Made by a program: the position numbers and the translations under genes
The notes under the pieces: generated by a model
The model's database searches: none
Seen by the model: only the letters and a program-made list of their open reading frames with translations
Told to the model about the DNA's origin: nothing
Assembly (NCBI GenBank): GCA_951406725.2
Contig: OX597814.1
Span: forward strand, 57,660,001-57,724,000
From: Octopus vulgaris
Taxonomy: Eukaryota
Reading direction: 5' to 3'
Length of the DNA: 64,000 nt
Part shown: piece after piece, positions 2,823 to 51,817 of the stretch
Numbering within the stretch: position 1 is the first letter of the stretch
Layout: each line of letters opens with the position of its first letter

Positions 2823-3260
2823 ATAAATACAGGGTAAAAATTATCAAATAATATAATACTGTATTATAATTTATACACGGAGGGGAGACCACCATGTGGG
2901 CTCCTTACATGCTAGAGAAGGCAGTCAAAAGCTACGAAAAAATACATTCTTATTGTACGATTGTACGTTGCTTGTAAGCGAGCAGGACACTTGAATGAAA
3001 CAAAATCTCAGTTAACCTTATACCCATGAGTTTCACCATTAGTGGTCAAATAAACCAATAAATTAATTGATGAATTAACCATCCGTAGCTCGTCAGTAGA
3101 GTTGCTGGAAAATGCATAATTATGAAATTACAATACGTACCGAATAATAAAGTAAAAACATGCGCATCTTGTTCCATTTTTATACATCAAGAATTGAAAT
3201 TGAATACCTTTAACCAACGTGCAGAGTCATAGTAGTTCAGCAGTGAATGAATTCAACCGT
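2823..3260 (-). mobile_element. Hammerhead-bearing non-coding retroelement unit (Penelope-like/retrozyme-like), copy A
   Basis: Starts right after (TA)n. Its first part is repeated at 4535-4796 and its second part is inverted at 4797-4999. Contains a hammerhead at 3014-3103. Confidence 0.6.
3014..3103 (-). ncRNA. Type I hammerhead ribozyme with long stem II
   Basis: Minus strand: AACUCUA-CUGACGA-[GCUA..UGGUUAA..AUCAAU/AUUGGU..UUGACCA..UGGU]-GAAAC-UCAUGG-GUA^UAAGGUU. Core intact; stem I has one mismatch. Confidence 0.75.
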
Positions 3261-3266
3261 GTATTA

Positions 3267-4502
3267 TTAGGTTGTTCCAAAAATAATGGCCGCTCTGAGT
3301 TTTGTGTTTTGAAACGCAATTTTATCATAGTGTTTAATCATATTTCGGTGAATTTCGACAAACTTAATAACTGATGTATGCTCTTTTATAATTTTCTACT
3401 TATTTCATACAGAAAACATTCTTGAAGCATAAGTGCCCTTAATTATGAACATGACAAAAAAGGACCTTCGCTTACTTTTCTTGCATGAGTTCAAGCGTGG
3501 GCACAATGCCTCCTAAACTGCTGCCAATATCAACAGAGCACAAGTGACCGCACAGTATGAAGGTGGTTTCAGAAATTCCATGGTCGTGATGAGAGCCTTG
3601 AAGATGAAGGAGGTAGAGGACGGTCATGCAGTTTTCACAATGAACAACTGAAAGCAATTGTTGAACACAACCCACGTCAAATTGTCAGAGAAATGTCTCA
3701 GGCACATGGTGGTATTGCAAAGGTCTCACGCAATCTGTAGAAGATTGGTAAGGTGAAAAAGCTGGATAGATGGGTACCGCATGAGCTCATTGAAAATCAA
3801 AAAGTTCGGCGTTTTGAAGTGTGCTTGATGCTTTCTTCTGTGAAGCACCAATGATCCTTTTCTTGATCGAATAGTCACTTGTGACGAAAAGTGGATCCTT
3901 TATGATAACCGTAAACGGTCAGGTGATGGCTTGATCATGATGAGGCCCCCAAACATATTCCAAAACCAAAGTAGCATCAGCAAAAGATTATGGTGACTGT
4001 CTGGTGGTCTGTTATTAGTGTTGTCCATTACAGCTTTCTGCAGAGGTTTACTGCAATCAAGTCGCTGAAATGCATGCTCACTAGCAAAAAATGAGATCTG
4101 CATTGGTGAATCGGTGTGGCCCAATTCTGCTCCACGATAATGCAAAGTCACATATTCGAAGAATGACGCTGCTGAAACTCACAGACTTGGGATACAAGAC
4201 TTTACCATATCCTCCATATTCTCCCGGATTTTCACCCATTGACTACCATTTAAAGCATTTAAACACGTTTTGAAGTGATAAAATTTTCAGGTCAAAATGA
4301 AGGGTGGAATCAGCTTTCAAAGATTTCTTAGCATCAAAGCCAATACGTTTTTTTCAACGAGGCATAAATAATCTCGTTGATCGATGGCAGAGATGCATAG
4401 ATGTTCACAGATCATACTTTGACAAACCAAAACATCTCTATTCCTAATTTTTTCAGAATAAAATTGTTTCTGAAATCGGCCGTTATTCTCCCAACAACTT
4501 AA
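3267..4502 (+). mobile_element. Mariner (D,D34D-type) DNA transposon, near full length, decayed
   Basis: Imperfect TIRs TTAGGTTGTTCCAAAAATAATGGCCG / CGGCCGTTATTCTCCCAACAACTTAA with TA on both sides; internal transposase motifs. Confidence 0.9.
3451..4425 (+). pseudogene. Mariner transposase pseudogene (frameshifts/stops)
   Basis: MTKKDLRLLFLHEFKRGHNA, WVPHEL (~3771), IVTCDEKWILYDN, LLHDNAKSH and PYSPGFSPIDYH spread over different frames. Confidence 0.9.
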
Positions 4503-4534
4503 TATCTGCCGAAGAATTTAAATATTTAACTATA

Positions 4535-5048
4535 TAAATACAGGGTAAAAATTATTAAATAAACAATTTATACCAGTGGTTAGCATGTGTAATAAAAGTC
4601 AGAAGACATAAATATTTTTATAATATAATAGTGTATAAGAATTTATACACGGAGAGGAAACCACCATGTGGAATTCTTACGTGCTAGAGAGGGCAGTCAA
4701 AACCCAAACCACGAAAAAGCAAAAAAAAAAAATCTTATTTATTACACGTTGCATGTAAGCGAGAAGGACGCTTCAATGAATAAAAATCTCAGTTAATCTC
4801 TGCACGTTGGTTGAGGGCATTCGATTTGAATTCTTGATGTATAAAGATGGAAATAAATGCTCATATGTTTACTTTATGTATTCGGTACATATTGTAGTTT
4901 CGTAATTAAGAGTTTTCCAGCGACTCTACTGACGAGCCACGGATGGTTAATTAATCAATTAATTAACTAATTAATTGATTTATTTGATCATTAAAGGTGG
5001 TCACCTCTCCGTGTATAAATTCTTATACACTATTATATTATAAATATA
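4535..5048. mobile_element. Rearranged copy B of the hammerhead-bearing unit (direct plus inverted segments)
   Basis: 4535-4796 resembles 2825-3016; 4797-4999 is the reverse complement of ~3034-3226; 4996-5048 is the reverse complement of ~4612-4665. CTGACGA at 4929 has no following GAAAC. Confidence 0.65.
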
Positions 5049-48754: not shown

Positions 48755-49143
48755 GCTTGCTAACCAACCACTTGGTTCAGGGTTCAGTCCCACTGCGTGG
48801 CATCTTGGGCAAGTGTCTTCTGCTATAGCCCCGGGCCGACCAATGCCTTGTGAGTGGATTTGGTAGACGGAAACTGAAAGAAGCCTGTCGTATATATGTA
48901 TATATATGTATATGTATTTGTATGTGTTTGTGTGTCTGTGTTTGTACCCCTAGCATTGCTTGACAACCGATGCTGGTGTGTTTACGTCCCCGTCACTTAG
49001 CGGTTTGGCAAAAGAGACCGATAGAATAAGTACTGGGCTTACAAAGAATAAGTCCCGGGGTCGAGTTGCTCGACTAAAGGGAGTGCTCCAGCATGGCCGC
49101 AGTCAAATGACTGAAACATGTAAAAGAGTAAAAGAGTAAGAGT
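48755..49143 (+). mobile_element. SINE family B
   Basis: Matches the 28511 copy; (GTAAAAGA)n tail. Confidence 0.9.
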
Positions 49144-50554
49144 ATCTGTGGAATGTTCATCCATTTAAATATTAATTCAATGAGCTGGATAGTTAGCTGA
49201 GCTGAGTCTACGACTGACTGTTCAGCAGTCTTCAAAGCAGATAAGTGAGGCATCTACTTATTACATACTAAAGGTAACATTAATAATTTTATTATTTTTC
49301 TCCTTTCAAAAGAAATAGTTGTCTTTATATGTACCGTGCAGCTTCGTCTCTCAGACACAGATATATTCAGACATATCGCGAATCACGAAGCGTCCAAACA
49401 TGACCATCTCGTTTTTTATTATAGATATACTGTTCAACACATTATCCAATGTATTTTTCCTTCTTTTTAAGGTCGTGCATTATGATGTGAGCGGTATTTC
49501 GTGCTTTCGTGGTTATTTTCAGCAGGTCGAGCGATCATTTAGCTGCTTTCTCATTGGCTCATCTTATATTTGTTAATGTGCGTCCTTATGTACATACGAT
49601 GACCAATACGAGGAAAACCTTATAAAAAGGCGGAAATAGGCAGGTTTAGTATTGGATTCATATAATATATACATCAAAAATACCTACATACATGCATACA
49701 AATATATGTATGCTCATAAATATCCATAAATACACGCATACGTGTGTATAAATGTGTATATATATTAACTGTATATCTTACTACTTCTTTCTTCTTCTGA
49801 CAGTTTGAACCATTGTAACTTAGGCCATTCTGGAGCAACGCCAGATTAGATGTTTACACAACTATACACAATGACACAGAAAAAAAAAATAATATGCTCG
49901 TATTATATATTAAATAATAAACAATCAAACAAGCCCTTGGAGCGAAATCGAAATTTATATGAACAGAAAAAAAGCACCTTAAAAAACTGTGTATTGAACG
50001 AAAAAAGAATTATTAGCAAATTATGAAAGACTACTTTTGCTTCTGTAGCGGAATCATGTATTGATTGGAAATCTAATACATTACCGTGGGTCGATGCAAA
50101 TAAATATAAAAGGTATTTTGATTAGTCAGAGTAAGCGGCAACATTCACAGAATTCTGTATACAAATGTCTCCTTTGAACACCATCATATATAGGAAACAA
50201 TCGCACAGTGGAAATTATAGGTAAAACATGTAATTGAGTATTAGTTTGATGTAATACATATATTCTTGCATCTAATGCATGCCAAAAGGAATATGTATTT
50301 GAATCATTAAATTATTTCTGATTGTTATAATACATGTTACGTCAAGGGCGCAATTCTTTTTTCATCTGAAGTTCAGGACTAATCTCATTTCTCATTCATC
50401 TTATATCTGCGTACGTGTGTGTGTGTTCGTGTGTGTTTGTATGTCTCTGTGCATGTGTATGTGTGTATATGTATATATGTATGTATGTGTGTATGCGTGT
50501 AATTTGTTAAAACGAGGCTGGTTTGGTTATTCCCTACCTAGACTTCTTTCTGAC

Positions 50555-50800
50555 ATTCATCAACATCATTATCATCATCATCGTCGTCGTCGTGATTATT
50601 ATCATCATCTGTTTCCATCTCTTCCTCCTCACCATTATCACTATGTCGACAAACAGCACCGACATCACCGACAGAATCACCACCACCACCACCAAAACCA
50701 CCACCACCACCAAAACCACCACCACCACCACAACCAACCTCCTGATTATCACTACCACTATCACCGCAATCACCACCAACACTACCACCATCATTACCAT
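50555..50800. repeat. (CAT)/(CGT)/(CAC)n compound trinucleotide repeat
   Basis: Seen directly. Confidence 0.9.
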
Positions 50801-51627
50801 TGTAAGGTAGGTCTACCTTGTTCAATGTATCAATTCGTTTTTAGATGACAATAAAGTGTATTTGAAGGAGAATTGGCTGCGATTTCTAGCAGTATGATCG
50901 ACTGCATAGAGGCATCCCTTGCTTTCAAACGTTAGATTTGCGAAGCAAGGAAATAACCAACATTCATTCAAATGTTGACTTTTGTCTTCATAAAACATTG
51001 TTTTCTGATGAACAAGTACCAACTCCTTTCAAGATAAGTGAAAGAAAATGGTTTCATTTGTAAAATACATTCCAAACCTTTATTTACTTTATTTGAATTT
51101 GTTAAGAACAGAGTTCAAGTTTGACTGCATTTATTAACACTTAAAATAAATAAAATCATTTGAATTTATGATAATTTGGATGAAAATGCTTTAACAAGAT
51201 AGACTCTTCAATTGACTCATAAGCGTAAATTCATTAAGAATTGAAACACGTAACCAATTAAGAGGAACCACTTTCAGCTTCATGACAATTCTCAAAAAAT
51301 CTTAGAAACATACGAATGACAGAGAGAAAAACAACAATATATAGGTATTATATATACAGGGAAAATGTTTAAGAAACGGTGTATTGAATGAAAAAGGAAT
51401 TATTAGCGAATTATAAAAAAGACTAATTTTGTAGAGAAATCGTGCACTGATTAGAAATGCAATACATTAGAAAACATAAGTGTCTGTGACTCTTATATAT
51501 GGCCATCTTCTGTAAAGAATGTGACCCAATGCAAAATTTCAGGTACCTGCGTGAAAAACAGTTCTTTTAGTTTACCATGCGCGCAAACCTATTTATATCA
51601 AATATTAAGATTGTTATGAATTTCTTT

Positions 51628-51817
51628 AGGTTACAGCTATTTCCACTATTAGATGAAGTGGAGGCATAGTTCAATGCCTGAGCAACAGCTTACAGTTTCA
51701 TCAGAGCCTCTGATATATAGTGCAATTCATGTTTGAGGCTCTGAAGAAGCTGTAAAGTGTTATTCTGGCACTCAACTATGAGTCCACCGCATCTTATAGT
51801 GGAAACAGCCGTAAGCT
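51628..51817. ncRNA. Inverted pair of long-stem-II hammerhead motifs
   Basis: Plus arm 51737-51817: GGCU-CUGAAGA-[..]-GAAAC-AGCC-GUA^AGCU. Minus arm 51628-51710: CUGAUGA-[..]-GAAAU-AGCU-GUA. The arms are diverged reverse complements separated by 24 nt. Confidence 0.65.

Follow-up and report, generated by a model that had tools for sequence, protein, structure and literature searches.

Type I hammerhead motifs with a long stem II in Penelope-like and tandem repeat families of Octopus vulgaris

A 64,000-nucleotide stretch of the Octopus vulgaris genome (assembly GCA_951406725.2, contig OX597814.1, positions 57,660,001 to 57,724,000 of the forward strand; hereafter the window) carries, at five loci, type I hammerhead ribozyme motifs with an elongated stem II. 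These long-arm hammerheads are real, abundant and structurally supported. We read the loci as truncated, partly inverted terminal repeats of Penelope-like elements (PLEs) together with tandem passengers that lack an open reading frame (ORF), each with a long-stem-II type I hammerhead that is predicted to cleave itself, and give this reading a probability of roughly 0.75.

Hammerhead motifs in the window

The first-pass annotation of the window had proposed six hammerheads with a palindromic stem III and a stem II of about 45–60 nucleotides (nt), and all six were recovered where it had placed them, on the strands it had given, over five loci. The loci carry type I cores, the order of the CUGANGA, GAAA and NUH boxes being that of type I. 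From CUGANGA to GAAA the spacers measured 45–61 nt: 55 nt in the motif at 3014, 60 nt at 26399, 45 nt at 36297 (where the first box reads CCGAUGA), 61 nt at 41497, and 54 nt in either arm of 51628–51817. Both motifs of this last pair exist, but they belong to a single insertion with a 5′ inversion rather than to separate copies, and the minus arm has no C after GAAA. In 23 of 31 families stem III is perfectly palindromic.

A search of the window with the pattern CTGANGAN{40,68}GAAACN{3,6}GTH returned five matches against 0.07 expected, and five or more were seen in none of 100 shuffles. Four of the five are loci of the first-pass annotation; the fifth, at 56124, is a chance match inside a long interspersed nuclear element (LINE) ORF, with only 2 of 5 stem I positions pairing. 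When a stem I criterion was added, three matches were left in the window and none in each of 60 block shuffles. That stem II folds into an extended hairpin despite little sequence identity is borne out across families but not copy by copy: only 41497 clearly beats its shuffles (z = −2.25), the other five window motifs range from −1.3 to +1.2, and for 26399 and the minus arm at 51628 the best predicted fold is not a hammerhead. As most window copies are decayed and fold poorly, the case rests on families and not on single copies.

Pairing of the long arm across families

Candidate motifs were drawn from 359 sequences (1.47 Mb) and selected on core and stem III only. The resulting set holds 242 distinct motifs in 69 clusters; 42 clusters have spacers of 40–80 nt, and 18 of these have at least two members. 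Because cross-family alignments are unreliable, we used swap tests in place of a covariance model. In the 18 multi-member long families, stem I pairs at 4.22 of 5 positions, compared with 2.37 once 5′ and 3′ strands are exchanged between families; for basal stem II the values are 3.83 of 4 and 2.54, and in neither case did any of 5000 swaps reach the observed value. Over all 42 long clusters, chance matches included, the corresponding values are 3.81 versus 2.15 for stem I and 3.40 versus 2.42 for basal stem II. In 17 of the 18 families (1.2 expected) stem II is closed at its base in the predicted fold; the folding z has a median of −2.9 and reaches −2 or below in 14 of the 18.

One series of related subfamilies could be aligned, with one near-duplicate removed from the 22 extracted copies. 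In the remaining 21, covariation is 0.313 against 0.199 ± 0.015 in the control (0/500 shuffles, a count that is not a probability, since the covariation sets hold few independent lineages), and slid controls give at most 0.106. In the distal hairpin of this series two pairs switch between CG, AU and UA (CG/AU/UA and UA/CG swaps), and RNAalifold recovers the same hairpin unaided. A second alignable series (19/21 copies) has two-sided changes in 4 of 10 predicted pairs. In 13 of 25 folds the last loop base on the 3′ side is A. Pairing of all three stems is conserved across families, and the hammerhead is predicted to self-cleave.

The catalytic boxes and the GUH triplet are all retained across 31 unrelated families. 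A mere binding site would not require them, which argues against an account in which the motif has ceased to cut and survives as a folded signal, recognised by the PLE protein, upstream of the points where reverse transcription starts. Work on an Anolis PLE speaks for such a signal: catalytic mutants of its hammerhead reportedly left insertion in vitro unaffected, and RNA-seq gave no reads ending at the cut site (PMC11167929). On balance we consider the signal account improbable. The Anolis hammerhead is also reported to cleave only with its protein and to be dispensable for insertion in vitro.

Genome-wide abundance

Across the genome, the long-spacer pattern CTGAHGAN{40,68}GAAACRWWYGTH matches 20,189 places versus 96 for the reversed control, a 210-fold excess; the identical pattern with a 7–30-nt spacer matches 6,471 places versus 91. 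Both counts take in one stem III class only, so that the 3:1 preponderance of long over short is not a ratio over all hammerheads. The Neptune motif with a 2-nt stem III, which is very common, and Hydra motifs with 7-nt stems (Neptune and Hydra being PLE clades) fall outside both. One genome thus holds at least 20,000 long-arm motifs in dozens of families, with a second arm two to five times the usual length.

The motifs could in principle be chance matches in AT-rich repeat DNA. In favour of this, the window does contain one chance match (56124), and Rfam reports no hammerhead there at E values up to 1, nor any at gathering score in five test loci that included short-arm elements. The Rfam negative is uninformative because short PLE hammerheads in loci L205, L421 and L433 are equally missed, and the 210-fold excess together with the swap and shuffle tests refutes the explanation, whose probability we regard as negligible.

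Linkage to Hydra-clade Penelope-like elements

The motif at 26399 belongs to family D26. The first-pass annotation had included it among small non-coding units; it is instead the end of a formerly protein-coding element. In D26, a reverse transcriptase (RT) with a GIY-YIG endonuclease at its C terminus lies upstream of the repeat and shares its strand, and this RT is nearer to Hydra than to Neptune. The window segment is found downstream, on the same strand, in 18 of 30 loci fetched by the endonuclease, and L097, L103 and L210 have ORF, untranslated region (UTR) and hammerhead in colinear order. RT fragments in L261 and L265 match the Hydra-type protein and not the Neptune one. D26 also displays 5′ truncation, inversion, two 3′ termini and a (TA)n target, and the CxCX5C linker given for Hydra by Craig et al. 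(2021) is present both in D26 and in family F6. The F6 element in L300, related to D26, is a near-intact repeat–ORF–repeat Hydra element with a 51-nt-arm hammerhead in both repeats. Its endonuclease follows the RT, so that it is not assigned to the Naiads, although no Naiad protein was searched for in the genome.

Among 40 more distant endonuclease loci, families with 75–77-, 59- and 60-nt arms follow the ORF: the first is colinear with its own ORF in 8 of 13 further loci, the second stands behind a Hydra endonuclease in L357 and L281, and the third in L358 only. Five long-arm families are linked to a Hydra-clade RT/GIY-YIG ORF. The 3′ UTRs here reach ∼0.4–1.9 kb. Two other young autonomous families are short-armed, a 727-amino-acid (aa) Hydra family (10 nt) and a Neptune family (12 nt). 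Named relatives of one of the octopus PLE proteins come from Argonauta and Octopus.

Three apparent linkages were rejected. In L004/L136 an A36 copy has a Neptune-type ORF as its neighbour; this ORF inserted separately into the same (TA)n, and its family carries a 12-nt-arm motif of its own. In L296 a TA tract stands between a C41-like unit and a Hydra RT fragment next to it, and the pair was not counted. In L138 the 727-aa Hydra ORF has a D26 copy upstream, to which it is unrelated, its own family having a 10-nt arm.

We also noted a very young Neptune-type PLE at 3252–6887 (+) of L207. All 150 of 150 scored matches, out of 18,690 candidates, are 99–100% identical in amino-acid sequence; the family has open frames of up to ∼1210 aa and a UUGAAGA core variant in its hammerhead.

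Tandem families, retrozymes and 3′ ends

Every locus in the window is a member of a separate high-copy family in this 2.8-Gb, microsatellite-rich genome. First-look candidates numbered 1438 for A36 (the motif at 36297), 1872 for C41 (41497), 550 for B3 (3014), 2204 for D26 and 987 for E51 (51628–51817), of which the best 40 per family were scored. Among scored copies, identities are 97–99% in C41, 83–98% in A36 and mostly 70–82% in B3, and intact cores occur in 24 of 28 distinct copies of A36, 21 of 22 of C41 and 19 of 28 of E51. The notion of a Penelope or retrozyme system with an elongated stem II therefore holds, as Hydra-clade PLE repeats and ORF-less tandem passengers, but not as one dispersed element: there are five unrelated-looking repeat families without mutual resemblance. 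Linked RT and GIY-YIG ORFs, which the first-pass annotation had suggested looking for, turned up for D26 and for none of the other four.

A36, B3 and C41 form head-to-tail arrays without an ORF and with one type I hammerhead per unit, i.e. the layout of retrozymes. The tandem units might thus be full retrozymes, giving rise to abundant 490–590-nt circular RNAs from which reverse transcription would copy more than one unit. In favour of this, arrays reach at least seven units with near-identical copies, and mussel and coral retrozymes are reported to make such circles (PMC7229834). The joint from 41894 to 41310 is present in contigs of three of three runs that are probably RNA, but also in a probable DNA run and in genomic arrays, so it demonstrates no circle. 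The units moreover exceed the 170–400 nt given in PMC7229834, and neither D26 nor any other ORF-linked family consists of tandem non-coding units. With one complete hammerhead per strand, the single-unit insertions of the window could not yield a unit circle; only tandem arrays elsewhere could. We hold the retrozyme account at slightly below even odds; it is compatible with our preferred reading for the tandem families only. Another tandem hammerhead family (G000:C1:25050050-25052891 and more) combines a 25–26-nt arm with 545–560-bp units, and unit size is thus independent of the long arm.

Three loci had been described as 450–590-bp units adjoining (TA)n and opening on a shared GGGT(G/A)AAA(A)TT. 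The motif is there, but it does not open the units: the ribozyme-sense RNA carries its reverse complement at the 3′ end. Well-sampled families each show two preferred 3′ ends followed by (TA)n, at 148 and 254 nt past the cut site in A36, 190 and 288 nt in C41, and 41 and ∼110 nt in F6; the two termini lie ∼65–215 nt apart. GGGT(G/A)AAA(A)TT is the reverse complement of the distal end and marks a superfamily of tandem units (A36, B3, C41, L311, L007, L289 and L037); at 41805 it stands at a second, internal terminus. Searched as a pattern, the shared 3′ motif gives 1,041 matches versus 3 for the control, and no ORF was found upstream of its matches in 30 loci. Alone among the surveyed ORF-linked families, F6 has by eye a similar distal end, GGTG...AATT...TCACCC. 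Two reverse-transcription start sites enclosing a ‘tail’ of 30–40 bp are described for PLEs (PMC11167929); the two termini here match this layout, but the tail is longer. The A36, B3 and C41 units have PLE-type ends and are probably moved by an F6-like Hydra lineage, a partner suggested by this likeness of the 3′ motif.

Insertions in the window

On the minus strand, 2824–3265 is a 5′-truncated unit of the old ORF-less tandem family B3 (a dimer is present in L073), with its 3′ end against (TA)n. Its near-palindromic-stem-III hammerhead occupies 3014–3103 (−) and has a 55-nt stem II, reflecting a 9-nt deletion relative to the family. A second B3 insertion with a 5′ inversion spans 4535–5049; it holds a seventh hammerhead copy, overlooked by the first-pass annotation, at 4929–4998 (+), truncated just before GAAA. 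The D26 insertion consists of a 5′-truncated 3′ terminal repeat (pseudo-long terminal repeat, pLTR) of this Hydra-clade PLE family at 26330–26520 (+), with a decayed hammerhead at 26399–26490 (60-nt stem II), and of an inverted piece of the element's own downstream tail at 26211–26329 (−). This is a PLE-type 5′ inversion; in several loci, e.g. L210, the query segment 22–139 is inverted and begins ∼70 nt downstream of the part with the hammerhead.

The young ORF-less head-to-tail family A36 (493–499-bp units) is represented by 1.2 units at 36048–36655 (−) between (TA)n tracts, with a hammerhead at 36297–36374 (−; 45-nt stem II). One 585–587-bp unit of C41, a very young ORF-less head-to-tail family, fills 41310–41896 (−). 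It contains the best-preserved hammerhead (41497–41588, −), with a 61-nt stem II, a 6-bp stem I, a CGUACG stem III and a GUC triplet. A fragment at 41120–41249 is the 3′ end of another family, F8, which has a 44–45-nt arm. Finally, 51608–51960 is one insertion of the old family E51, comprising a 5′-truncated end (+) with a hammerhead at 51734–51817 and an inverted copy (−) at 51628–51711.

Origin of the long arm

For comparison with other organisms, the best 80 of 426 Hydra-type loci from metagenome contigs were kept and 78 examined. Hammerhead-like matches are carried by 59 of these, with spacers of 10–29 nt except for three matches of 52, 64 and 69 nt that have no C after GAAA; one of the three is a second parse of a 17-nt motif. 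We found no credible long arm in the 59 loci. Five metagenome contigs of 2.7–3.2 kb (L426, L442, L458, L461 and L488) each consist of a single Hydra-type element with its short hammerhead at both ends.

An endonuclease tree was computed on 62 rows. Five families (D26, D26-like, F6, F77 and F1/F3) contribute its nine long-arm rows, which, together with nine unlabelled octopus rows, fall on one side of a branch with SH-aLRT support of 98; the short-arm Hydra of the octopus falls with the outside elements. From this tree we infer a single origin of the long arm, in a Hydra sublineage restricted to the host, after which selection has kept it paired.

Several observations weigh against these readings. 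The tree comes from a quick search over 145 endonuclease columns with midpoint rooting, and its octopus rows were mostly collected by their likeness to D26. F8 follows a Neptune-type ORF in L302; the shared sequence is broken and the linkage unconfirmed, and if real it would break the single origin. Five of the six window copies fold no better than shuffles, and intact cores are found in only 12 of 29 copies of B3 and 10 of 26 of D26. No ORF was found for A36, B3 or C41, and the parent element of E51 was not found: an upstream walk over 30 loci gave no ORF, nor was a colinear PLE ORF seen in 25 + 30 loci, E51 copies being heavily truncated. The 21-row covariation set comprises only about five independent subfamilies. 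Covariation within E51 is not significant (68/500), and that within B3 (4/500) has its clearest two-sided changes in stem I; a weak signal within single old families is expected because the copies are dead. No conserved nucleotide marks a tertiary contact between the arm and stem I. Published PLE hammerheads are described as weak cleavers (PMC4209133), and eight of nine predicted retrozyme dimers reportedly failed to cleave in vitro (10.64898/2026.07.22.740005).

Other features of the window

An intact 1043-aa LINE ORF with endonuclease and RT (Pfam Exo_endo_phos, RVT_1) lies at 54833–57964 (+), with 53556–54959 upstream, between very long (TA)n tracts; a decayed, inverted relative, 70% identical, occupies 36729–38151. 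A remnant of a Tc1-like transposase (DDE_3) was found at 12444–13400 (−), and an imperfect palindrome of 234 bp, 71% self-complementary, at 24522–24755. The segment 52494–53405 contains a 255-nt poly(A) run within ∼650 nt of (TA)n and is possibly an assembly artefact. Outside the window, L299 has an intronless ORF at 3770–4435 (+), which we take to resemble dCMP deaminase; it is flanked by the two copies of a duplicated segment, spaced 6.2 kb apart, with helicase-like remnants.

Proposed role of the hammerhead and its arm

From known PLE biology, the tandem loci would be transcribed, the palindromic stem III would pair two neighbouring hammerheads, and the multimer would be cut into units; cleavage is predicted, and would probably take place in a dimer or be aided by the protein of the element. 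The PLE protein would then nick (TA)n, reverse transcription would start at one of the two sites downstream of the ribozyme, and truncation and inversion on insertion would leave fragments such as those in the window. The long arm most probably acts as a structural or protein-docking arm that times ribozyme folding, without being part of the chemistry.

The arm could also be a tolerated expansion without a job of its own, in which insertions accumulated and need only fold back out of the way. Stem II tolerates large inserts in engineered aptazymes. Spacer lengths across this genome form a continuum from 10 to 77 nt, arm sequences vary freely between families with no conserved loop motif, and active short-armed Neptune and Hydra families coexist with the long-armed ones. 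Compensatory changes far from the core argue against simple tolerance, as do the 3:1 excess of the long form within the stem III class counted and the lack of a credible long arm in the 59 outside loci. Taken by itself, tolerance appears to us distinctly less than an even bet; the paired arm is probably a folding or docking arm, at about even odds against mere tolerance.

A bolder proposal is that the host-restricted Hydra sublineage made stem II a functional module, e.g. a docking arm through which the element's own protein switches cleavage on, a natural counterpart of the engineered aptazymes, and that the tandem families have retained the arm because they parasitise this protein, spreading as 490–590-nt RNA circles. 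We think this unlikely; if true, long-arm hammerheads would be a large, overlooked ribozyme class in animal genomes. With a published descriptor limit of 17 nt and at least 20,000 motifs beyond it, it may be necessary to repeat ribozyme censuses with long spacers, and to recheck in the same way any claim that an element ‘lacks a hammerhead’. Young long-arm and short-arm Hydra families, and passengers with intact cores that are 97–99% identical, occur side by side and offer a natural series for the effects of stem II length on cleavage, protein dependence and mobilisation.

Comparison with known systems

Hammerheads in PLE repeats, retrozymes, and an origin of retrozymes from PLEs are already known (PMC4209133; PMC7229834; 10.64898/2026.07.22.740005). 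We did not find the long-stem-II variant described in the literature on cephalopod, Naiad, retrozyme and long-stem-II hammerheads, a search that did not extend to Repbase and Dfam. The words ‘ribozyme’ and ‘hammerhead’ are absent from the main text of a 2026 octopus repeat annotation; a giant squid paper lists 235 Rfam hammerhead matches; and the 35 genomes in the 2026 preprint by Li, Clavereau and Pollet (10.64898/2026.07.22.740005) include no mollusc.

Close in layout are the Hydra-clade PLEs of Craig et al. (2021; PMC8557442), whose hammerheads are likewise type I with a palindromic stem III near the 3′ end, with (TA)n targeting, and which share the C-terminal GIY-YIG with CxCX5C linker and the tandem and inverted insertions. 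Their core descriptor allowed spacers of 7–17 nt, and the 26 Hydra rows in their File S2 have ∼12–26 nt (23 nt in the octopus entry), in contrast to 43–77 nt here. The same work offers a long-arm precedent in the spike-moss elements PLE-X1_sMoe (∼54 nt) and sTam (∼48 nt), marked there as deviating from canonical structure; these are two plant families of another clade, unlike the present Hydra elements. Its supplement also lists eight Naiads (‘HHR_half_core’) with core halves 35–50 nt apart. Two of these were read by eye as candidates for the same motif and neither was shown to fit: in Naiad_Ovul GAAAC precedes CUGAUGA, and in Naiad_Esco the spacer is 45 nt long but stem I does not pair. As a separate observation, the 3′ ends of Naiad_Ovul and the preceding record read, by eye, GUA plus a stem I strand, GAAAC, and the complementary stem I strand plus CUGAUGA, an order that might represent a non-circularly permuted hammerhead.

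With the minimal metazoan PLE hammerheads of Cervera and de la Pena (2014; PMC4209133) the octopus motifs share a dimer-type stem III, which permits a dimeric active site, an optional unpaired base on the 5′ side of stem II, and many sequence-unrelated families per genome with compensatory changes and mostly truncated single copies. A ‘larger than usual’ helix II in that report has 6–8 bp, whereas here it is an interrupted hairpin of 15–25 bp. A36, B3 and C41 resemble animal non-LTR (long terminal repeat) retrozymes, which are ORF-less head-to-tail units with one type I hammerhead each and a proposed origin from PLE pLTRs (PMC7229834; 10.64898/2026.07.22.740005); they differ in their long stem II and 490–590-bp units. 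What is new is the length of the arm in PLE and retrozyme hammerheads, and not the type of system.

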